Source: a virus
Lineage: Duplodnaviria > Heunggongvirae > Uroviricota > Caudoviricetes
DNA length: 42,931 nt
Virus record (IMG/VR): IMGVR_UViG_2541047844_000013
Coordinates: 1-42,931 of that record
Direction: 5' to 3' (one strand)
Under the pieces are notes generated by a model that was not told where the DNA came from, searched no databases, and saw only the letters and a list, made by a program, of their open reading frames with translations. Position numbers and translations under genes: made by a program. Shown here piece by piece: positions 2,494 to 42,931 of this stretch (the first letter of the stretch is position 1; every line of letters begins with the position of its first letter).

Positions 2494-2793
2494 CTACGAT
2501 GCAAGAATCCATACCAATAAGCATCCGATAATTGGGAAAGAAAAATCCAACAAACTTCCCACATCCCACACGCGTGGATCAAAACCTCCCCACCACGGCA
2601 TGTTGACACGTTTCCCTTTCCCAAACTTTTCTATCCAGCGATATTCTGCCTGGGTGTGTTCACGCGCAATGAAGAACGTACAACCGGCTATCGCACCGTA
2701 AGCCCAGTTTCCGGTAAAAATACCAACCAGTACCTGAGCCGCAAAAGCGCAAAGCGAGTGAAGAAATGGAGTGACATCAATGCTCTTAATCAT
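2494..2793 (-). CDS. Small hydrophobic membrane protein, unknown function (occupies the oac/gtr lysogenic-conversion position)
   Basis: 99-aa ORF with hydrophobic N- and C-terminal segments; located between int and tailspike; no family recognised. Confidence 0.4.
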
Positions 2794-4847
2794 GAAACTT
2801 CCCCATTGGTTGAAAATATGGCTCCTCCAACTCCAAGTGTATTTCGTGTTGTGCTCAACCTAAGAGGGCTGGAGTCAGAATTAGAATATCCTGTAGCAGA
2901 AATAAAAGATCCTCCACTAATAGTCAACTGCGGAACATCGGCTATATCTGAATAAGTTCTGTCAGCAACAGTATTATTTATAGCCACATGTGATCCAAAA
3001 AAACTTCTTATTGTTTGGTTTTTAACTTTACTTCCTTCAATGGTTATCCTACTACCACAGTCAGCAATAAATCCTGAATCTGCATCCAGCGTTGCATTCA
3101 TAAAAGAAGCTTCAGATCTCTCTACATCAATCCATCTAATATCTTTTGTGGGATTTGCACCAAATACATGACAAATATTAGAGTTAAACCTTACACCATC
3201 TTGGAGGTGCATTAATTTTTTTATATCTGTACCCCATAGCCTTGGAAAATTAACAGATGCTCCTGCATGGCAATCAAATCCCAACTCAGCCCCTGAGATA
3301 TCTACAGCCTTTCCTGAAATAACAGCACCAGTGTCTGCATTAACGGCTGTTCCACAATTGCGCATATCATTACCAGCAATATCAACACAACTCGCACCAT
3401 CAATACGCACACCAAGTGCACATCCATAAAAACCTTTTTCAATATTTGGTTCAAGGACTTTACCACTTGTTTCTGCATCACTTTCTTCAACGTCATGTCG
3501 TCTTGCATCAACATATGCTGTATGAATGCAGGTTAATCCACGATATGAGCAATGTATAGTTTTATGGTCGCGTATATTAACATTTGAACCATCTCTTACA
3601 TTCCATCCTATATAACAATAGCTTGCACTTGACCCCTGAAAATCTGCTTTAACATTATAAATACAATTAACTGACGCAACCGTACTCTCTGTGCACCGTT
3701 CAAACTTGCTTACAGGCATTGATGCCTTGACATTATTTACCAGTTGCAGGGAAGAGTATCTGCTATAAGAAAAATCACATACGTAATACCCTTCTGGCAT
3801 ATATGCAGCAACACTTTCCTCATCAGGAGCACATCCGGTATGATATGCACTAATTTTTGCACCAAAGCTACCATGAATTCCAACGTAGAACTTTCGAGCA
3901 CCTGAATACGGATAGAAATTAAGTTCAGCTTTTTGAGTTACAATAAATGCACAAACATCGCTATCATCTCTATTTTCTTCAATCTGAATAGCAAATACAG
4001 GACTTTTTGCTGCATCGCAAATGTAAAATAAATATTTGTATTCGTAATACGTCCTAACAGTTTTAGTAAACAAACTGGTATCAGAGAAAACCACTGAGTC
4101 TTCTGATATTATTTTAATCCATGATAAGTCACATCCTGCTGAAATTTCTATTTGCTCATTGAGCACAAAACCGGAAAGAATTTTAATTATGCAAAAGTCA
4201 ATGCCATTTTTCCATAGTGGACGCAGTGCAACAGCCGAGTTTAGAGCATCACTAATAGATTTAAAATTACCATATTCCCCAACTGTTATTGTGAATGCAT
4301 ACCTGGAATTAAATACTGCGGCACTCTCTCCAGAGTTAATAGCTGCAGATATCATGTCATAATTTGATATAAAATCATTTGGCGTGATTATTTCTGCGTT
4401 TTTATTGTGCTGTGTTCTAAGTTTTGAATTTACATGAACACTTTTAACTGCAATACGGGAGTCGTCAACAAGTATTTCATTACCCTCTGTTGCTAACTCT
4501 TGTCTTAACTGATCCGGGTCATACTTCAGCACATTCGGAAAATTGAACTGCTGTGCACCATACGCATCATAAACAGCCATAGAATGGCCTTGCTCAGTTA
4601 CGAATTTGGCAATCTGTCCGTTATATACAGGATAACCAGCAGCGTTAATGATGATTGGTTGCGAAACAGGAACGTGAGAGCCGTCTTCGTTCTCTACATA
4701 AACCTGAATCTGGTTTTCAGGATTTACCGGGTCAGTGTCAATTTTACCGATATAAATTTTGCCATTGGCTACGGCTTTAAAAGAACGCGCCATAGTGAAG
4801 AGTTGCGAAGGCATACTCACTACAACATTGGCTGTAATGTCTGTCAT
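2790..4847 (-). CDS. Tailspike protein: P22 gp9-like N-terminal head-binding domain fused to a different receptor-binding/depolymerase domain
   Basis: First ~110 aa ([43 protein letters not shown]...VLKYDPDQ) match P22 gp9 N-terminus from memory; the remaining ~570 aa do not resemble P22 gp9. Confidence 0.88.
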
Positions 4848-4915
4848 TTAATTTGCTCCAGGTACAAGGAATCGCCGCAGCATTGCCACAGTGATGCATT
4901 ATTAATCAAACAAAG

Positions 4916-4930
4916 AGACCACTGTGGTCT
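4916..4930. promoter_or_regulatory. Candidate Mnt operator: 15-bp inverted repeat AGACCAC-T-GTGGTCT between mnt and tailspike
   Basis: Perfect 7-bp arms around a central base; resembles the P22 Omnt CCAC-GTGG core as I recall it; lies in the 146-bp divergent intergenic region. Confidence 0.5.
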
Positions 4931-4993
4931 TATTGAGGATGCAACCAGCAGATAATAAGATGCCGATCCACTCACAAAAGCGAGGCATCAAGA

Positions 4994-5245
4994 ATGGGAA
5001 GAGATGACCCGCAATTTAATCTGCGGCTACCTTACGAATTAAAGGAAAAACTAAAACAGCGAGCCAAATCCAATGGCCGCTCTCTTAATTCAGAATTAGT
5101 TCAGATAGTGACTGATGCTGTATCAAAGCCATCCAAAATTTCAGGCTATCGAGACGATGCGGAACGCATCGCTGATGAGCAGTCTGAACTTGTTAAGAAG
5201 ATGGTGTTTGATACGCTGAAGGATTTGTACAAAAAACCCACCTGA
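4994..5245 (+). CDS. mnt: Mnt repressor (ribbon-helix-helix, Arc/Mnt family)
   Basis: 83 aa; MGRDDPQFNLRLPYELKEKLKQRAKSNGRSLNSELVQIV...ERIADEQSELVKKMVFDTLKDLYKK is near-identical in pattern to P22 Mnt; Gln at the position of Mnt His6. Confidence 0.85.
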   Translation: MGRDDPQFNLRLPYELKEKLKQRAKSNGRSLNSELVQIVTDAVSKPSKISGYRDDAERIADEQSELVKKMVFDTLKDLYKKPT

Positions 5246-5259
5246 AGGTGGGTCCTATT
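5236..5259. terminator. Bidirectional rho-independent terminator between mnt and the convergent lipoprotein gene
   Basis: Hairpin ACCCACC-TGAA-GGTGGGT flanked by A6 upstream and a T-rich run downstream, so the complement has a U6 tract; overlaps the mnt stop codon. Confidence 0.55.
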
Positions 5260-5261
5260 TA

Positions 5262-5681
5262 TTAGTCTTGCTTTGTTGATGGTATAAGAGATGCGTTTGC
5301 CTCTTTTGGCTTCAAGGTATACATCCCACCATTAAAAGGATCTACAGCAAGCCAACCAATTAACCCACCAAACACAAGGTTTCCACCAATATACCAACCA
5401 TTAGCATTGGCTTTGATTGGCAGGGTAACTGGTTCGTACCCATCCTTTTCCATAGTGATCTGGTAGCTCTTTTTGCCAAAATAACTACCATCTGACTTGG
5501 CAAGAGTTACTCCTTGCGGAGTCTTACCTTGCGCAACAATCACGCCGGATTCGTCTTTTACCTTAAAGCTCGCACCGGAAGGATTGCTGTTCACTTGCAC
5601 AAGCTGTGTTTCGTCACCAACAATAGTTGCGCACCCAGATAACAATATAGCGCCAGCAACGACGCCGATAATCCTCTTCAT
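5262..5681 (-). CDS. Lipoprotein, PEGA-like domain, unknown function (accessory gene)
   Basis: Signal peptide with lipobox LLSGC; PSGA motif; 139 aa; in the immI-equivalent region between the ejection genes and the tailspike. Confidence 0.6.
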   Translation of the reverse strand: MKRIIGVVAGAILLSGCATIVGDETQLVQVNSNPSGASFKVKDESGVIVAQGKTPQGVTLAKSDGSYFGKKSYQITMEKDGYEPVTLPIKANANGWYIGGNLVFGGLIGWLAVDPFNGGMYTLKPKEANASLIPSTKQD

Positions 5682-5815
5682 ATTACTTTCCGTTTTGTTA
5701 GAATCAGAAAGATCTTAATAATAAAAAGTATTTTCGTGAAGATATTGTCGATTGAGTTAATAACTCATTTACACCCAACAGTGCCATGATGGCAAAGATA
5801 AGGAGAGTTAATCAT

Positions 5816-6301
5816 ATGAAAAAATCACTGTTAATTATCCCGCTTCTGCTGGCAGGGTGTGCAAAGGTTAGCGACTATCAGGCAAGTTGCGAACAACGCT
5901 ATCCAAAGCTTAGCGATATGGCTAATTGCCTTGATGCTAGCGTGAAGAGCGACTCACGCATGGCATCAGCACCAACACCTAAGTTGTATGTCCTTGCTGC
6001 GAAGATGCTCGGGCAAGGTGTCGATGATGGCAAGATAAGTGACGCGCAGGCAAGACTTGAGCTTCAGAATCTTTATGTTCAATTACAAAGCCAAGAACAA
6101 GCCCAACAAATAGCACAAAGCCAAGCATTCCAGCAGGCTTTATTGAATTATCAGGCTGTAAACACAATGCAAGCTATCGAGCAAAAAGCGCGCCAGCCTG
6201 TTATAACTCAACCTTACCCAACACGCGTTGACACTTACACAAACTGCAATTCAGGGTTTGGAAATACAGTCACATGCAACAGTAGCAGTAACATCAGATA
6301 A
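5816..6301 (+). CDS. Lipoprotein with Q-rich central region, unknown function (accessory gene)
   Basis: Start chosen at MKKSLLIIPLLLAGC (lipobox LAGC) with AAGGAGAG Shine-Dalgarno 8 nt upstream; divergent from the 5262-5681 gene. Confidence 0.6.
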   Translation: MKKSLLIIPLLLAGCAKVSDYQASCEQRYPKLSDMANCLDASVKSDSRMASAPTPKLYVLAAKMLGQGVDDGKISDAQARLELQNLYVQLQSQEQAQQIAQSQAFQQALLNYQAVNTMQAIEQKARQPVITQPYPTRVDTYTNCNSGFGNTVTCNSSSNIR

Positions 6302-6391
6302 CAATCAGCAAAGGTATCGCCTATGCAGAGGGATACGATAAACCTCGCGTTCTACATATTTGGTTTTTGCACGTTCCTGGTGTTTGAAAAG

Positions 6392-8389
6392 CTATTCTGA
6401 CAACGCATCAGACTTAGCCCCCTGAGTAAGGGCGTTAATGGCCTTTTGCGCCTGCTGCATGGCTTTCTCAAACGCTGTTGATCCGCGTGGGGTGTTTGCC
6501 ATTCGGAGCATTGCATTTCTGAATGGCTCGCTCTCATAGGCGCGAGTAAGAAGTCCGTAGCTTACTGCTGCGCCAGTTGTAGCCGGGTTCATTGCCGTCC
6601 CATACCCAATTATGAACGGGATAGTTTGCTGCCCTGTGGGTGTTGTTACTGCCGCTTTTGCAGCCTGCTGCGTGGATTGCAGGTAGTTTTTTAATCCTTT
6701 CAGATAAGCAGCGTCCTGCCCCTTAAATGTGATGCCAGTCTGGTTTTGCAGGATGTTAAGCTGCCGAAGGAACTGGTCAGGGGATCCGCCAGATTTCTCC
6801 ATCGCCTTTCCAATGATGCCATTGCGCATTTGCGTCCTGCCAACACGACCAACTGAGTTATACAGAGTCTTAATTTCCGATTTGTTCTTGCTGAATAGCA
6901 TGTTGTTGACAACTTCCGGCGTCAGGTCGCCTTTCATGAGAACATTCTTCAGCCTGGTATTCTTTAGTTTCGCCGCTTCGTCAGCGTAGACGGCATTGGC
7001 CTGCTGATATTTACGGAGAGTATCGTTGCCAAGATTCTGACCAATGGCACCATTGATATCGTCGGTCATTGCCTTGTAAACGCGCTGAATGGCAGCATCG
7101 GAACGGTTTGGTAACACTGGTCGCTCACCTTTCACGTCCATTCTGAACTGGCTGCGCAGGTCGCTTAATTGCTTCAAATCCAGATTTACCGGACCATCAG
7201 GACCAGCATTGCGAACAAGCTCATCACGATATGACTGAAGTTTTGAAATTGTCTCGTTATCAGCTACCTTACCAAGCTTCTGCAGATTAGATATTTCTGT
7301 ATCAATCTGCTGAATTGCTCGCGCAGGCTGAATGTTTACTCCAGCCATAGCATTCTGAACCTGCTCCAGTCGATTACCGGCGGCACGACGAATTCCTGAT
7401 GTTTTCGCTTTAAGGCTGTCAATAACAACCGCTGGATCATACTCACCGAATTTATCGGCAAATCTCTGCACCAACTGGCTTCTCGCTTCCTGTTGCGTTG
7501 CTCTCATTCCGCTTGTGCCAGCCAGAGGGATATTTTCTGCTGTAGTCTGCGCCATTTTTCCGACGCGGGAAGTGGGTTGTAACAGGTCTGTGGTGTGCAG
7601 AGGAACTCCTTCACGCTCTGCAAATCTGATAGCCTGCTGCGCTTCTGGCGCAATAGCACCACGAACGCCACGATAAGCAGCACCTAATCCACGCCCGGCA
7701 GCGTTAATAGCAGCGCCAGCAAGTACACCAACGCCTAAATCGGTGGCGAGTGCTTCCGCATCATCTTTCGCACTATTTGCAGCAAGTGATCCAACTGCGT
7801 TTTCTGCTAGAAGGCGAGTTGCCCCCTGAGCAATTCGACCAGCAAGTGTTGGTGCCTGTACCGCCGCTCTCTCAACGCCAGCAGGAGTGAGGTAAGGCAA
7901 TGCTTCAGCAAATACCTTTCCCTCTGTCGTTTGTGGAGTCAGCGCACCTTGCTGAAGGCCAAAGTCCTGCTCTAATCCCTGCGTTGTTACTCGTGGTGCT
8001 GGTTGATATGTACCATCGCCAATACCGAGTTTACCGCCAGCCCAAGCCGCCGCGCTTGTTACAGCATCGGCAACTGATGCAGGTATGTTTGCCACGTTCA
8101 CGCCAGCCTGCACCATTCCGCGACCAGTCTCTTTTACTGCTTCGCCAAGATCAGACATAAATCCACTTTGCTGTGGTTGTTGCTGTGCTACTGGTTGCTG
8201 TGTCTCCACTGACTGCACAAATGGCAATGGATAGGCAGCATAGAAAGCTTGCTTAGCCTGCTCTGCATTTTCTCCGGCTTGCGGGGCCACGACTTCATTG
8301 AAGTATTGCTCCTGAGCCTGCGCTTTTTGTTCTGGTGCTAACGCCTGATACTGTGGAGAGGCGATAACATCTTTCCATGCTTTAGCCAT
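6392..8389 (-). CDS. Ejection (injection) protein, P22 gp16-like
   Basis: 665 aa; position and order (14-7-20-16) downstream of the tail needle as in P22; Ala/Gln-rich composition typical of ejection proteins. Confidence 0.7.
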   Translation of the reverse strand: MAKAWKDVIASPQYQALAPEQKAQAQEQYFNEVVAPQAGENAEQAKQAFYAAYPLPFVQSVETQQPVAQQQPQQSGFMSDLGEAVKETGRGMVQAGVNVANIPASVADAVTSAAAWAGGKLGIGDGTYQPAPRVTTQGLEQDFGLQQGALTPQTTEGKVFAEALPYLTPAGVERAAVQAPTLAGRIAQGATRLLAENAVGSLAANSAKDDAEALATDLGVGVLAGAAINAAGRGLGAAYRGVRGAIAPEAQQAIRFAEREGVPLHTTDLLQPTSRVGKMAQTTAENIPLAGTSGMRATQQEARSQLVQRFADKFGEYDPAVVIDSLKAKTSGIRRAAGNRLEQVQNAMAGVNIQPARAIQQIDTEISNLQKLGKVADNETISKLQSYRDELVRNAGPDGPVNLDLKQLSDLRSQFRMDVKGERPVLPNRSDAAIQRVYKAMTDDINGAIGQNLGNDTLRKYQQANAVYADEAAKLKNTRLKNVLMKGDLTPEVVNNMLFSKNKSEIKTLYNSVGRVGRTQMRNGIIGKAMEKSGGSPDQFLRQLNILQNQTGITFKGQDAAYLKGLKNYLQSTQQAAKAAVTTPTGQQTIPFIIGYGTAMNPATTGAAVSYGLLTRAYESEPFRNAMLRMANTPRGSTAFEKAMQQAQKAINALTQGAKSDALSE

Positions 8390-9777
8390 TAATCACCCCA
8401 TAGTGAAGAAAAGTTACTGCTGGCTGCTGGCTGTGATACCTGCGCAGGTTGAGATTGCTGCCGCTGAGATTTACCAACATTAACGTTATATTGTTGGTTG
8501 TAATTGTTGGTGTATTCCTGAATCTCACGAATCGACTGCTGCATAGCCTCCGGGCTTGAATAGTCAACCTGCGGCATCCCCTGAAAATACATCTTCGCTT
8601 CTGCAACGGTGTTAATACCACTGGCACCCATGTCCCTTGCTGCCGCCACACCCTGATTCTGCATTCTGCCCTGAATACGTTGTGCTGAGTTATATAACTG
8701 GCGCTGCTCTTTTCCCGTTAATCGGCTGCGAACATCAGCACCAATTGCTGGATTACCTGCACCGCCTGTCATTCCTGTCATGAAATCGAGAGCAGAAGCG
8801 TCTGCATTTGCGATCGCGTCGATATCCTTCTTCATGGCATAGTTTTGTGCTGATGCAGACGATGTTGCCGGCGCAGCGATTGAACTGGCAGGAACGCGAA
8901 CCATATTCCCCTCGTTGTCGATGCCTTCGTAGAACGCATTAGCCCCAGCGCCGTGAAGCTTCCCGCCTACCGTTACAGTTCTGCCATCTGATAACTGAAC
9001 TGTACGCTCATCATTCCCAGCAGTTCCTCTTGTTGACGATCGCTGCATTGCCAAATCCTGACCGCGTCGTGCAGTAGAAGCAGATAAATCCTGACCGCGC
9101 ATCGTGATGTTCTGACCACGCGCTGTTAGTGCTTCTCCAGCCTGATTGCTGCGGATTGTCTCTGCCAGCCTGCCTCGGTCAATTTCACGACCAGCCATCT
9201 TGTCCTGAACATTGAAGTAATCAATCGGACCAAGCGCAGCCATCCCAAGGTGATCAACAAACTCACCAAATCCTGAAGGATTCTGCTGATACATCTGAGC
9301 AACGCTGTTAGGGTCAACACCGACGCGAGTCAGTTCCTTGGCGTTGTTTTGCAGCCATGATTGCATTGCTTCTGGAGACGATGACGCAAGGCGTGCGCCA
9401 GCCGCTAAGGTGCCGATAGAATTGCGCTGGTCTTCATCAATGAATCCCATGCCTTTACGAACAGATTCAATCTGGTCTGGATATTGAGTAGCCAACTGAC
9501 GCAAAGCACCGCGATCACCAGACGCATAAGCATTAGCGTATGCCTGCTGAAATTCTTTCTGCCGCTGAGCCTGCTTTTCCTGCTGAAAAACACCCGCAAT
9601 ACCAGAAAGACCTTGCAAAGCTGTCAGCCCAACATTGTTAGCGCCTGAACGCTCAATATCATTGTTCTGCCTGATAAGCTGAAGCGTGTTGCCGATGTCA
9701 TTTACGCTCGGAGCGTTTGAGTTGACACCACCGATACCAGCCAACAATCCGCCATTTGTTCCTTGCCAAGTAGCCAT
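8389..9777 (-). CDS. Ejection protein, P22 gp20-like
   Basis: 462 aa (P22 gp20 about 471 aa); conserved gene order. Confidence 0.7.
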
Positions 9778-9786
9778 GATTACCCC

Positions 9787-10482
9787 TTAAAACAACGATC
9801 CAAGCAGGCCAAGTCCGCCGCCAATTGCCGCACCTAATCCAGTGCCAAGTCCTGGAACAATAGAGCCAAGAGCAGCGCCAGTCATAGCCCCTGAAGCTCC
9901 GCCGCTAATTGCTGTCTGAAGGCCTGATGGTTTGTTGGCATTAGCAGCGGCAAGAGCTGCGCTTTGCTGTGCAATGCTGCTCATGTTGTTGGCATATGTC
10001 TGCCCAGCGTTTGCCTGACCTTGCAGAGCACCAAGCCCAACGTTTGCCAGATTGTTGTAATTGCTCATCTGGTTTGATAACCAAGACTGACCGAGAGTCG
10101 GCGCGATCGTAGCCAGTTGATTGCTTGTGGCTGTCGAACCAAGTCCTCCCGTAGCCTCCGCAGCAGCAAGACTCTGGTAACGAGCCTGACCTGCAAGGTC
10201 TTTATACTGCTGAGAGTTGTAATACTGATTAAGTGCCTGCCCCTGACCTTCTAAACTGGAAAGGTTCTGAAGCTGGTTAACATACTGCTCCGCAAGAGGC
10301 GTGAACGGAGCAAGGTTTTTCATGATCGTCTGCCACTGCTGATTTTGCAGGTCTGCGGCATACTTCTGAGCTTCTGCTGCATACTTTGCGCTTTTATCAG
10401 AACTGCCACCTTTCCCGCCTTTTTCAGGGCAATAAGGTTCCTCGCCGCGCAGTTTTCTGCCCAGCTTAAATGCATATAACAT
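9787..10482 (-). CDS. Ejection protein, P22 gp7-like
   Basis: 231 aa (P22 gp7 about 229 aa); conserved gene order. Confidence 0.7.
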   Translation of the reverse strand: MLYAFKLGRKLRGEEPYCPEKGGKGGSSDKSAKYAAEAQKYAADLQNQQWQTIMKNLAPFTPLAEQYVNQLQNLSSLEGQGQALNQYYNSQQYKDLAGQARYQSLAAAEATGGLGSTATSNQLATIAPTLGQSWLSNQMSNYNNLANVGLGALQGQANAGQTYANNMSSIAQQSAALAAANANKPSGLQTAISGGASGAMTGAALGSIVPGLGTGLGAAIGGGLGLLGSLF

Positions 10483-41683: not shown

Positions 41684-42931
41684 CTATATTGCTGAAGGTA
41701 CAGGCGTTTCCATAACTATTTGCTCGCGTTTTTTACTCAGGAAGAAAATGCCAAATAGCAACATCAGGCAGACAATACCCGAAATTGCGAAGAAAACTGT
41801 CTGGTAGCCTGCGTGGTCAAAGAGTATCCCAGTCGGCGTTGAAAGCAGCACAATCCCAAGCGAACTGGCAATTTGAAAACCAATCAGAAAGATCGTCGAC
41901 GACAGGCGCTTATCAAAGTTTGCCACGCTGTATTTGAAGACGGATATGACACAAAGTGGAACCTCAATGGCATGTAACAGCTTCACTAATGAAATAATCC
42001 AGGGGTTAACGAACAACGCGCAGGAAAGGATACGCAACGCCATAATCACAACACCGATAAGTAATGCATTTTTTGGCCCTACCCGATTCACAAAGAAAGG
42101 AATAATCGCCATGCACAGCGCTTCGAGTACCACCTGGAATGAGTTGAGATAACCATACAGGCGCGTTCCTACATCGTGTGATTCGAATAAACCTGCATAA
42201 AAGACAGGAAAGAGTTGTTGATCAAAAATGTTATAGAAAGACCACGTCCCCACAATAAATATGACAAAAACCCAGAAGTTTCGATCCTTGAAAACTGCGA
42301 TAAAATCCTCTTTTTTTACCCCTCCCGCATCCGCCGCTACACACTGGTGACCCTTATCTTTAAAACGCATGTTGATCATCATAAATACAGCGCCAAATAG
42401 CGAGACCAGCCAGAAGTTGATATGGGGACTGATACTAAAAAATATGCCGGCAAAGAACGCGCCAATAGCATAGCCAAAAGATCCCCAGGCGCGCGCTGTT
42501 CCATATTCGAAATGAAAATTTCGCGCCATTTTTTCAGTGAAGCTGTCAAGCAAACCACATCCCGCCAGATACCCCAGGCCAAAAAAGAGCGCCCCCAGAA
42601 TTAGACCTACAGAAAAATTGCTTTGCAGTAACGGTTCATAAACGTAAATCATAAACGGTCCGGTCAAGACCAGAATGAAACTCATACACCAGATGAGCGG
42701 TTTCTTCAGACCGAGTTTATCCTGAACGATGCCGTAGAACATCATAAATAGAATGCTGGTAAACTGGTTGACCGAATAAAGTGTACCTAATTCCGTCCCT
42801 GTTAATCCTAGATGTCCTTTCAGCCAAATAGCGTATAACGACCACCACAGCGACCAGGAAATAAAAAAGAGAAATGAGTAACTGGATGCAAAACGATAGT
42901 ACGCATTTCTGAATGGAATATTCAGTGCCAT
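41684..42931 (-). CDS. cscB: Sucrose:H+ symporter CscB (LacY-like oligosaccharide/H+ symporter), host gene
   Basis: 415 aa with start codon at the window edge; 12-TM LacY-like profile; recognised as CscB (MALNIPFRNAYYRFASSYSFLFF...). Confidence 0.8.
   Translation of the reverse strand: MALNIPFRNAYYRFASSYSFLFFISWSLWWSLYAIWLKGHLGLTGTELGTLYSVNQFTSILFMMFYGIVQDKLGLKKPLIWCMSFILVLTGPFMIYVYEPLLQSNFSVGLILGALFFGLGYLAGCGLLDSFTEKMARNFHFEYGTARAWGSFGYAIGAFFAGIFFSISPHINFWLVSLFGAVFMMINMRFKDKGHQCVAADAGGVKKEDFIAVFKDRNFWVFVIFIVGTWSFYNIFDQQLFPVFYAGLFESHDVGTRLYGYLNSFQVVLEALCMAIIPFFVNRVGPKNALLIGVVIMALRILSCALFVNPWIISLVKLLHAIEVPLCVISVFKYSVANFDKRLSSTIFLIGFQIASSLGIVLLSTPTGILFDHAGYQTVFFAISGIVCLMLLFGIFFLSKKREQIVMETPVPSAI

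Follow-up and report, generated by a model that had tools for sequence, protein, structure and literature searches.

Between the gp16 and tailspike genes of a P22-like prophage, we identified two lipoprotein genes that are transcribed divergently, occur mostly apart from each other, and in a prophage encoding identical copies of both proteins are among the most highly expressed genes under repression. Our preferred reading, held with somewhat less than even confidence, is that they are two independent, horizontally mobile morons in the gene 16–tailspike slot, of which the Q-rich protein may exclude P22-like phages and the β-sandwich protein may have an envelope role. The window, by which we mean the whole stretch of DNA analyzed (42,931 nucleotides), is a P22-like E. 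coli prophage located at argW in a strain other than LF82. Both genes are already annotated, as hypothetical, and a literature search for their accessions and locus tags found no paper. The two families are widespread in Enterobacterales prophages and under strong purifying selection, and neither has a Pfam family above threshold.

The Lipoprotein Module and Its Neighbors

The initial annotation described a divergent gene pair at the location of sieA and the immI genes in P22-like phages, and the reexamined locus agrees with it on both points. The features are, by position in the window:

2790–4847, minus strand: tailspike gene with P22-type head-binding domain (PF09008, 8.7e-65), downstream of the module and on the late strand
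4994–5245, plus strand: mnt, Arc/Mnt-family repressor (PF03869, 2.8e-22; PF11423, 2.2e-18)
5236–5253, both strands: bidirectional intrinsic terminator separating mnt and the PEGA-like gene, which converge on it
5262–5681, minus strand: PEGA-like lipoprotein gene, 139 aa (ORF list, lipobox, and homologue alignments)
5682–5815, no strand: spacer between the two start codons, 134 bp, 30.6% GC
5816–6301, plus strand: Q-rich lipoprotein gene, 161 aa from the favored ATG at 5816 (the alternative ATG at 5786, giving 171 aa, is unlikely)
6392–8389, minus strand: gene for the gp16-type ejection (DNA transfer) protein, the final gene of the virion-assembly block

The slot lies between the gp16 gene on one side and mnt and the tailspike gene on the other and matches the layout of P22, where sieA lies 22 bp past gene 16 on the opposite strand and orf59a, mnt, arc, ant, and gene 9 come next. 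In the window, gp16 is accompanied by gp20 (PF16928) and gp7 (PF25688), and mnt is the sole immI gene, with neither arc nor ant present there. The two lipoprotein ORFs do not overlap, irrespective of which start (5786 or 5816) is used for the Q-rich gene, and the latter is convergent with the gp16 gene across a gap of 90 bp.

The module had also been described as running opposite to the late operon and being isolated from it by a bidirectional terminator. The orientation is right for the Q-rich gene (and for mnt) only: the PEGA-like gene shares its strand with gp16 and the tailspike and is therefore embedded in the late transcription path. The terminator is real: on the minus strand its stem (ACCCACC/GGTGGGT) runs into a U6 tail (hairpin z = –2.7) and on the plus strand into a weaker T-tract (z = –2.0), and the same feature is annotated in epsilon34. 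It separates mnt from the PEGA-like gene, however, and not the pair from gp16; the 90 bp separating the Q-rich and gp16 stop codons showed nothing resembling a terminator (z = –0.6 and –0.1).

The AT-rich 134-bp spacer was described correctly. Its GC content of 30.6% compares with 42–47% in the two genes and 50–56% in the gp16/gp20 region, and the module thus differs in base composition from its neighbors, one of the marks of a moron in the Juhala/Hendrix definition (PMC3594210) that we followed. The plus strand of the spacer contains consensus-level σ70 candidates, TTCATA-16-TGnTAGAAT (5677–5704) and TTGTTA-16-AATAAT (5695–5722), at a frequency no higher than in shuffled sequence.

The Q-rich protein was originally given as 171 aa, which clashes with the 134-bp spacer of the same annotation, as that spacer places the ATG at 5816 and makes the protein 161 aa long. 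Judged from sequence features, a start at 5816 rather than 5786 is the most likely: a Shine–Dalgarno motif, AAGGAG, is found at 5800–5805, the PGAP annotation has 161 aa, the PHROG profile, of length 161, aligns with residues 11–171, and the same leader with TAAGGAG stands ahead of a different gene in other phages.

Two Conserved Putative Lipoproteins

We classified a protein as a predicted lipoprotein if it has an N-terminal signal peptide ending in the lipobox [LVI][ASTVI][GAS]C. As previously proposed, this holds for both proteins, with LLSGC17 in the PEGA-like protein and LLAGC15 in the Q-rich protein, each followed by Ala. The lipobox Cys is invariant among the aligned homologues (40/40 PEGA-like and 35/35 Q-rich), and a lipobox is present in 110 of the 114 full-length members of the PEGA-like family and in all 78 of the Q-rich family. 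At the +2 position, 108/110 and 71/78 of these, respectively, have Ala, and none has Asp. Given this near-uniform +2 residue and applying only the E. coli +2 rule, we infer that both proteins are probably lipidated and Lol-sorted to the periplasmic face of the outer membrane. The dN/dS ratios of the two genes are 0.03–0.04 at dS of 0.23–0.60, and such strong purifying selection indicates that they are genuine genes and not chance ORFs. The same ratios show no sign of an arms race in either gene.

The PEGA-like protein (GALLYPH_14, LF82_139, WP_000821222; PHROG family phrog_6823) has the reported length of 139 aa, while the family label is less secure, the PEGA match (PF08308) falling under the Pfam gathering threshold. 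The protein has a β-sandwich (PEGA/transthyretin-like) domain at residues 25–93, a conserved Gly-rich segment WYIGGNxxFGGLIGW, and an invariant VDPFNGGMY motif, and it is 97.8% identical to gp15 of epsilon34. By hydropathy, the C-terminal Gly-rich segment is not a transmembrane helix, the signal peptide alone being above the threshold, and no Pfam glycine-zipper match was found in it.

The Q-rich protein (GALLYPH_13, LF82_138, WP_000749287; phrog_6067) deserves its description, with Gln accounting for 13.6% of the mature sequence and for 14 of the 46 residues in positions 85–130. Besides the lipobox, it has four conserved Cys residues (C25, C38, C144, and C154). In a structure model of low confidence (pLDDT 64), the N-terminal domain is helical and is joined by a long Gln-rich helix and, at the C terminus, a β-hairpin; apart from the signal peptide, we found no transmembrane segment (no hydrophobic window of at least 1.6). 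The remote relatives of the family are ordinary chromosomal lipoproteins outside prophages.

Expression from the Repressed Prophage

The two genes had been proposed to be lysogen-expressed morons, with lysogen transcriptomics as the suggested check. Published RNA-seq data are available for Gally, a non-plaquing prophage of the Crohn's-associated E. coli strain LF82, under five conditions (Misson 2023, PMC9928086, S1 Table). The data stem from the Gally copy in LF82 and not from the window's own prophage; the two encode 100% identical copies of both proteins, and the 1.7-kb module differs by 2 nt.

The data support the proposal: both genes were highly transcribed from repressed Gally while the adjacent late genes were silent. 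Starting from LB and keeping the order of conditions, the log2 values were 6.1, 8.0, 8.1, 10.3, and 8.6 for the Q-rich GALLYPH_13 and 5.5, 10.0, 10.4, 11.0, and 9.4 for the PEGA-like GALLYPH_14; over the conditions, those of gp16 were 3.6–4.1 and those of c2 9.4–12.0. Among the 55 prophage genes, the two ranked second to fourth across all five conditions and second and third, behind c2, in the four conditions other than LB. Outside LB, they reached 17–108 times the prophage median, against 0.7–0.9 times for the adjoining gp16, and in LB stationary phase they were at 4.7 (GALLYPH_13) and 3.1 times (GALLYPH_14). Expression from a repressed prophage independently of the flanking late genes is a further mark of a moron, and here it amounts to 3–108 times the median with gp16 at 0.7–0.9 times. 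The LB values fall just below a 5-fold cut-off, which explains the statement of Misson 2023 (PMC9928086) that Gally has no morons; the LF82 RNA-seq data revise that claim. With both lipoprotein genes high and gp16 at background, the spacer appears to hold or adjoin promoters of both.

From the 3- to 5-fold level in LB, both genes climbed to 17–108 times the prophage median in control cultures of bacteria alone and within THP-1 macrophages, where the induction was strong, and the entire AT-rich right arm (mnt, tailspike, and GALLYPH_17) was induced with them. This behavior would suit host-fitness or virulence morons of the Bor/Lom/TraT type, which aid the lysogen in an animal host (serum, macrophage, and envelope stress) and have no anti-phage role. 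The chromosomal relatives of the Q-rich family outside prophages point the same way, as does the travel of the PEGA-like gene among unrelated phage types, since such a gene cannot target one injection machine. The phenotype data from LF82 do not favor such a role, as transposon insertions in both genes are neutral in LB and in macrophages: the Tn-seq insertion-density ratios for LF82_138 and LF82_139 are 0.82 and 1.30 between macrophages and LB and 1.12 and 0.87 between macrophages and the library (PMC8149705 Supplementary Data 4). Likewise, the main text of a mouse-gut CRISPRi study of LF82 highlights, within Gally, only the anti-repressor, lytic-operon genes, and Gallyph_21. We looked for a PhoP box that might explain the macrophage induction, but the spacer contained none; across the window such boxes numbered 130, slightly more than the shuffle mean of 104 ± 11, a count reached by 1 of 100 shuffles. 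As homology to Bor, TraT, or Lom was not found, and a host-fitness role leaves unexplained why the Q-rich gene is strictly limited to the sieA slot, we regard this reading as possible but doubtful.

Distribution and Mobility of the Two Genes

For INDEPENDENCE, a survey of 5426 E. coli genomes found 186 with the Q-rich gene, 124 with the PEGA-like gene, and 24 with the complete module. A functional pairing of the two genes is thus not supported, as they mostly occur separately. The PEGA-like gene is found without the Q-rich gene in epsilon34 and O111, where it has an hkcB-like partner, and the Q-rich gene without the PEGA-like gene in VSe13, O104:H4, Serratia, Morganella, and Yersinia. Megablast homology ends 10 bp (epsilon34) and 17 bp (VSe13) upstream of the respective start codons, and the left part of the spacer aligns loosely with epsilon34. 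A co-adapted two-component system sharing a divergent promoter region would account for the common AT-rich spacer and the parallel induction profiles in LF82. It is nevertheless very improbable in the light of the separate occurrences, the exchange of partners in epsilon34 and O111, the five other phages or hosts in which the Q-rich gene stands alone, and the loss of homology so close to the starts.

In Salmonella VSe13, Serratia, Morganella, Yersinia, and E. coli O104:H4, the Q-rich homologues converge on gp16, and in O104:H4 and Yersinia the gene lies downstream of mnt and is read in the same direction, which is the arrangement of sieA in P22. Across several enterobacterial genera, its only location is the sieA position of P22-like prophages, where it is an alternative to sieA or hkcB-like genes, and it co-occurs with very different gp16 types. 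No terminator was found for it, yet the slot is variable and this gene is among its several alternative occupants. The gene sits in the sieA slot in ∼3% of E. coli genomes, O104:H4 and O26:H11 among them, and in prophages of Serratia, Yersinia, Morganella, and Salmonella.

The PEGA-like gene forms a cassette complete in itself, made up of an AT-rich upstream region, the gene, and an intrinsic terminator, that is also found in the tail operons of lambda/HK97-like siphovirus prophages. Homologues of 68–78% identity lie between gpT and the tape measure gene in prophages of the E. coli ED1a type and Proteus, one lies between gpI and gpJ in Pseudescherichia, and another lies in a prophage remnant. 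In every context seen, the gene is co-oriented with the late or tail genes, and each copy examined has 22–39% GC upstream and a hairpin with a T-run after the stop codon. A terminator of its own and insertion between otherwise adjacent genes are moron marks that we found for this gene, the terminator being present in the window and in 5/5 other copies examined, and the gene having been inserted at four different sites.

Candidate Functions

Homology to exclusion, defense, virion, or lysis families was not found for either protein. Scans of both proteins against Pfam, NCBIfam, PHROGs, and PADLOC returned, besides spurious matches, only the unannotated phrog_6823 and phrog_6067 and the subthreshold PEGA match. 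With PADLOC-DB 2.0, no defense family matched either protein at E ≤ 1; PDB sequence-profile searches gave nothing under E = 0.04, and the structural neighbors of the predicted models were not informative. Profile matches to GspK, Cor, and Rz-like proteins fall on the signal peptide or low-complexity sequence and were dismissed.

Weak PHROG matches to Cor and an Rz-like spanin could be taken to indicate lytic-cycle helpers, either a guard similar to T5 Llp against the loss of progeny on lysing cells and debris or an accessory to lysis or virion release. The constant co-orientation of the PEGA-like gene with late and tail genes fits this, as the gene would then also be transcribed by antiterminated late transcription. 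The matches, however, cover the signal peptide or little beyond (residues 1–20, 11–39, and 13–46; E = 0.003–0.07), both genes are highly expressed while the late genes are silent, the prophage's own lysis cassette sits elsewhere, and the Q-rich gene is antisense to late transcription. We consider a lytic role unlikely.

Two specific identities were rejected. An o-spanin (Rz1-like) disagrees with the location of the genes ∼15 kb from the lysis genes and with their expression in the lysogen, and the phrog_11621 match (E = 0.033) spans residues 13–46 of the 171-aa form; that stretch comprises the signal peptide and ∼20 mature residues. The Q-rich protein as an inhibitor of a gp16 lytic-transglycosylase domain was abandoned because no such domain is detectable in the window's gp16 and the gp16 types vary.

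Our best guess for the Q-rich protein is exclusion at the outer membrane. Like SieA, it would act on incoming P22-like phages, but from the outer-membrane side, and it might cause superinfection exclusion by disturbing either the needle/ejection-protein conduit or a co-receptor in the outer membrane. The β-sandwich lipoprotein may have a general envelope role useful to any temperate Enterobacterales phage, candidates being the masking of an outer-membrane protein and the stabilization of the outer membrane.

Several observations bear on the exclusion model from the other side, among them the lack of an arms-race signal in dN/dS. The position argues weakly, as the slot also houses hkcB-like genes and orf59a; the chromosomal relatives of the Q-rich protein fit a general periplasmic role equally well; and strong induction in macrophages and control cultures is unexpected for a constitutive exclusion gene.

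In its boldest and rather doubtful form, our exclusion model would make the Q-rich protein a new class of superinfection-exclusion factor, an outer-membrane-anchored, disulfide-bonded periplasmic lipoprotein derived from a chromosomal family that replaces the inner-membrane SieA and, from the side of the outer membrane, blocks assembly of the trans-periplasmic DNA conduit of gp7, gp20, and gp16, while the PEGA-like cassette would be an envelope moron of podovirus and siphovirus prophages induced by host signals. Should the Q-rich protein indeed exclude phages, it would add a second way of blocking the P22-type ejection-protein conduit, acting at the outer membrane, and provide a handle on the assembly of that conduit.

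Comparison with Known Systems

The closest parallel in position is SieA of P22. Its gene has the same slot and orientation as the Q-rich gene (convergent with gene 16, in the direction of mnt, and within the gene 16–gene 9 interval), is likewise expressed from the prophage, is limited to P22-like prophages of largely the same genera, and encodes a protein of similar length (164 vs. 161 aa). SieA-type genes fill this slot in largely the same genera as the Q-rich gene (Leavitt et al. 2024, PMC10883804), and sieA is absent from two thirds of sequenced P22-like phages (PMC10883804). The proteins differ, SieA being a polytopic inner-membrane protein with the motif FxRYPxEAxxFNK and the Q-rich protein having a lipobox and no sequence similarity to it; any exclusion by the latter would be exerted from the outer membrane or the periplasm. 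A tblastn search with P22 SieA found none in the window (best E = 2.3, elsewhere in the window) or in eight loci (including Gally, epsilon34, VSe13, Serratia, Morganella, and Yersinia). With no transmembrane helices, similarity, or motif, the Q-rich protein was rejected as a member of the SieA family, with which it shares genomic position only.

Cor of phi80, N15, and HK022 and Llp of T5 are similarly small phage lipoproteins, expressed from the prophage or in early infection. They exclude at the outer membrane by blocking the FhuA receptor, whereas P22-like phages use the O-antigen and not FhuA. Membership in the Cor/Llp family (phrog_1119) was rejected, the matches covering essentially the signal peptide (residues 1–20 and 11–39; E = 0.0034 and 0.074). 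Lambda Bor, plasmid TraT, and Iss are also small outer-membrane lipoproteins carried on mobile elements, with constitutive or host-condition expression; they benefit the carrier cell, and no sequence or profile match to the window's proteins was found.

The orthologue of the PEGA-like gene is gp15 of epsilon34 (PMC2629481), which has the same position and the same terminator. Epsilon34 differs in having an hkcB-like gene in place of the Q-rich gene and in retaining arc and ant, and its gp15/gp14 region was described as an "ant moron" with two genes of no assigned function (PMC2629481).

The founding moron, gp15 of HK97, is an exclusion gene (PMC3594210). In contrast to the two proteins studied here, it encodes a YebO-like inner-membrane protein and no lipoprotein, and its exclusion function has been demonstrated. 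It is a promoter–gene–terminator cassette within a late operon, comparable to the PEGA-like cassette, and like both genes it is expressed from the prophage; like the Q-rich family it has chromosomal relatives outside prophages. Its site, between the tail chaperone (gpT) and tape measure genes, is the same as that holding homologues of the PEGA-like gene.

Genomic Setting and Gene Structure

Rather than a phage genome, the window proved to be a piece of Escherichia coli chromosome in which a P22-like (Lederbergvirus) prophage is integrated. The prophage occupies the argW/intS site, with yfdC on one side and a LacY-family permease gene on the other:

1–933, yfdC, at one end of the window
tRNA-Arg, at the same end
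1209–2402, intS, at the same end as yfdC and tRNA-Arg
2790–4847, minus strand, tailspike (late gene)
5262–5681, minus strand, PEGA-like gene
5816–6301, plus strand, Q-rich gene
6392–8389, minus strand, gp16 (late gene)
8389–9777, minus strand, gp20 (late gene)
9787–10482, minus strand, gp7 (late gene)
41684–42931, LacY-family permease, at the opposite end

Across positions 4800–6500, 2 nt set the window apart from Escherichia phage Gally (OV696608), and the PEGA-like and Q-rich proteins are 100% identical to GALLYPH_14 and GALLYPH_13. Gally, from the Crohn's-associated strain LF82, is a torS-linked prophage; despite this near identity of the module, the two prophages occupy different sites, argW here and torS–torT there. 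The tailspikes (685 aa here vs. 799 aa in Gally) diverge past the head-binding domain. At 4848–5245 of the window, mnt is present without arc or ant and faces the tailspike gene directly, with 146 bp between them. The gp16 type found here is called "lytic transglycosylase domain-containing protein" in some RefSeq records, yet Pfam and NCBIfam detected no such domain in the window's copy.

The initial annotation described a divergent lipoprotein pair transcribed opposite to the late operon and isolated from it by a terminator. This arrangement did not hold: the PEGA-like gene shares the late-operon strand, and the opposite orientation is confined to the Q-rich gene and mnt. The 90 bp separating the stop codons of the Q-rich gene and gp16 yielded no terminator-like element. 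The clear hairpin (5236–5253, U6 tail on the minus strand) lies on the mnt side, between mnt and the PEGA-like gene, and acts as the terminator of the latter; its counterpart in epsilon34 is annotated as a terminator.

Both ORFs are real genes with a lipobox, as originally proposed. The N termini read MKRIIGVVAGAILLSGC followed by ATIV... (PEGA-like) and MKKSLLIIPLLLAGC followed by AKVS... (Q-rich). No aligned homologue departs from the lipobox cysteine (40/40 and 35/35, respectively), and 110 of 114 and 78 of 78 full-length family members have a lipobox. Among lipobox-bearing members of both families, residue +2 is nearly always Ala and in none Asp. The dN/dS of both genes is 0.03–0.04 at dS 0.23–0.60 (Nei–Gojobori).

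The Q-rich start is most likely 5816 (161 aa) rather than 5786, which gave the 171-aa protein initially annotated. A Shine–Dalgarno-type AAGGAG stands at 5800–5805, RefSeq annotates 161 aa, and the PHROG profile has 161 positions aligned to residues 11–171 of the longer form. In epsilon34 and an O111 prophage, this TAAGGAG-bearing leader stands ahead of another gene, an hkcB-like one, and is therefore untranslated. With the 5816 start, the AT-rich 134-bp spacer of the initial annotation stands (30.6% GC).

Protein Features

The profile searches and structure predictions that the initial annotation had proposed yielded two models and no named family. Neither protein matched Pfam above threshold, NCBIfam, PADLOC, or PDB sequences, and both fall in PHROGs of unknown function. 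The 139-aa protein is modeled (pLDDT 77) as a seven-strand beta-sandwich (residues 25–93) with a terminal hairpin packed on it; it has a conserved Gly-rich segment, WYIGGNxxFGGLIGW, and an invariant VDPFNGGMY motif. The Pfam PEGA score (17.6 bits) lies below the 20.8-bit threshold.

The weaker model of the 161-aa protein (pLDDT 64) has a helical N-terminal domain (residues 18–70, pLDDT about 80), a Gln-rich helix of roughly 50 residues, and a C-terminal beta-hairpin. Four conserved cysteines beyond that of the lipobox (C25, C38, C144, and C154) would fit a disulfide-bonded periplasmic protein. When we tested the defining features of the Bor, Cor, Llp, and TraT-like families, neither protein displayed them, and neither is a member of these families.

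Expression in the Lysogen

We used the re-analysis by Misson et al. 2023 (PMC9928086) of LF82 RNA-seq from Prudent et al. 2021, in which the lysogen carries Gally, a different prophage from the one at argW. From its S1 Table we took the log2(fpkm+5) values of the individual Gally genes, averaged over replicates. B1 and B6 are bacteria-only sets, presumably 1 h and 6 h, labeled without definition in the source texts consulted.

Transcript levels, log2(fpkm+5), in LB stationary phase, B1, B6, and macrophages at 1 h and 6 h
GALLYPH_13 (Q-rich): 6.1, 8.0, 8.1, 10.3, 8.6
GALLYPH_14 (PEGA-like): 5.5, 10.0, 10.4, 11.0, 9.4
adjacent gp16: 3.6–4.1
c2: 9.4–12.0

Relative to the median of 55 prophage genes, GALLYPH_13 and GALLYPH_14 reached 4.7× and 3.1× in LB and 17–108× outside it. 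They ranked second and third, behind c2, in 4/5 conditions (all except LB). Both genes are thus conditionally among the most expressed of the prophage, a new point. Since the neighboring late genes are silent, the signal does not come from spontaneously induced cells; a lytic-cycle role is less likely than the readings discussed below. The initial annotation's "lysogen-expressed morons" is supported by these data, and the absence of lysogen expression that it named as grounds for rejection was not found.

Misson et al. concluded that Gally has no moron because both genes fell under a 5× cut-off applied in LB stationary phase only (70.2 and 51.1 vs. 78.1; 4.5× and 3.3× over background, PMC9928086 Table 1/S1 Table). 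The published statement depends on that choice. The same study reports "the five rightmost genes" of Gally to be induced 6–40-fold in macrophages.

Also in macrophages, mnt, the tailspike gene, and a small gene beyond stood at 5–27× over the prophage median, which suggests co-regulation of the AT-rich right arm or read-through from the PEGA-like gene. The arm (2800–6300) has 32–47% GC vs. 50–56% in the ejection-protein genes. We found no PhoP box accounting for the induction, for which lifted xenogeneic silencing would be a plausible candidate cause.

Distribution of the Two Genes

The Q-rich family numbers 94 proteins at E ≤ 0.001 (word-indexed search). In every context examined (Salmonella phage VSe13, Serratia, Morganella, Yersinia, and E. 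coli O104:H4), the gene lies in a P22-like prophage between gp16 and the tailspike gene, convergent with the gp16 homologue; in O104:H4 and Yersinia, mnt precedes it in the same direction. No sieA homologue was found by tblastn in the window or the eight loci searched. According to Leavitt et al. 2024, sieA is present in 22/66 P22-like phages, and sieA-like genes of P22-like prophages, in largely the same genera, are found between genes 16 and 9 without exception. Constant position, absence of sieA, and this layout together make the Q-rich gene an alternative occupant of the sieA slot, and its slot-specificity across genera is new.

The hkcB-like genes, 3′ of the shared leader, are another occupant of the slot. 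The leader CATGGTATCCTGCNCAAAACTAAGGAG (window 5770–5815; comparison loci L002, about 3620–3653; L030, about 4025–4058; L003, about 2985–3017) is followed by an hkcB-like gene in epsilon34 and the O111 prophage and by the Q-rich gene in VSe13. This resembles a conserved junction where alternative cargo genes are exchanged.

An exhaustive profile search recovered 252 cluster representatives of remote Q-rich relatives, most of them lipoproteins of about 130 aa with the same five-Cys pattern and no long Gln-rich helix. The two examined in context (loci L020, 6208–6633, and L021, 8001–8390) lie among chromosomal housekeeping genes, outside prophages. Pfam and NCBIfam hold no model for the family, a candidate new domain family.

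The PEGA-like family is larger (728 proteins) and not tied to P22-like phages. Homologues at 68–78% identity sit in siphovirus prophages of the E. coli ED1a type and of Proteus, where gpT (tail chaperone) and the tape measure gene flank them; in Pseudescherichia the gene lies between gpI and gpJ, and a further location is a prophage remnant. Each copy has an AT-rich region upstream and a strong hairpin with a T-run directly 3′ of the stop. By these features the gene is a textbook moron cassette, and its promiscuity is a new point. The ED1a-type lambdoid prophage (L005/L006; homologue at 7001–7414) also has a Porin_1/Porin_4 gene (11261–12424) between gpM and gpL, placing two predicted outer-membrane morons in a single tail operon.

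Among 5,426 complete E. coli genomes, 186 carry the Q-rich gene, 124 the PEGA-like gene, and 24 the whole module; among 50,697 phage records, only 5 and 4 have the respective genes. By these counts, the pair consists of two independent cassettes that came to lie together by chance. The genes occur mostly apart, which contradicts the pair as a functional unit, and a two-component system is among the less likely explanations.

Possible Functions and Known Systems

In our best-supported mechanism, both proteins would, by the +2 rule, be lipidated and sent by the Lol pathway to the outer membrane's inner leaflet. The Q-rich protein would most likely hinder incoming P22-like phages in delivering their DNA, at an outer-membrane or periplasmic stage, a reading to which we give low confidence; it draws on a position strictly equivalent to that of sieA, prophage expression, and the predicted periplasmic disulfide architecture. 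Its chief competitor is a host-fitness function of the Bor/TraT kind, which the induction profile favors but neutral Tn-seq weakens: LF82 tolerated insertions in both genes, with macrophage/LB ratios of 0.82 (Q-rich) and 1.30 (PEGA-like) (PMC8149705 Supplementary Data 4). Neither gene is singled out in the main text of a CRISPRi study of LF82 in the mouse gut. As the PEGA-like gene accompanies both podovirus and siphovirus prophages, its product is expected to have a phage-type-independent envelope role.

Existing database entries list the products as hypothetical proteins (Gally, vB_EcoP-720R6, and VSe13), and epsilon34 gene 15, of unknown function, lies inside an "ant moron" (PMC2629481). 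Also new is that both families, though under strong constraint, are without any Pfam or functional assignment. Both genes belong to a known category, the prophage lipoprotein morons (Bor, Cor, Llp, TraT-like). The mnt–Q-rich order of O104:H4 and Yersinia matches mnt–orf59a–sieA of P22, and the gpT/tape-measure site of the PEGA-like gene is where HK97 carries gene 15, an exclusion gene that was the founding moron (PMC3594210).
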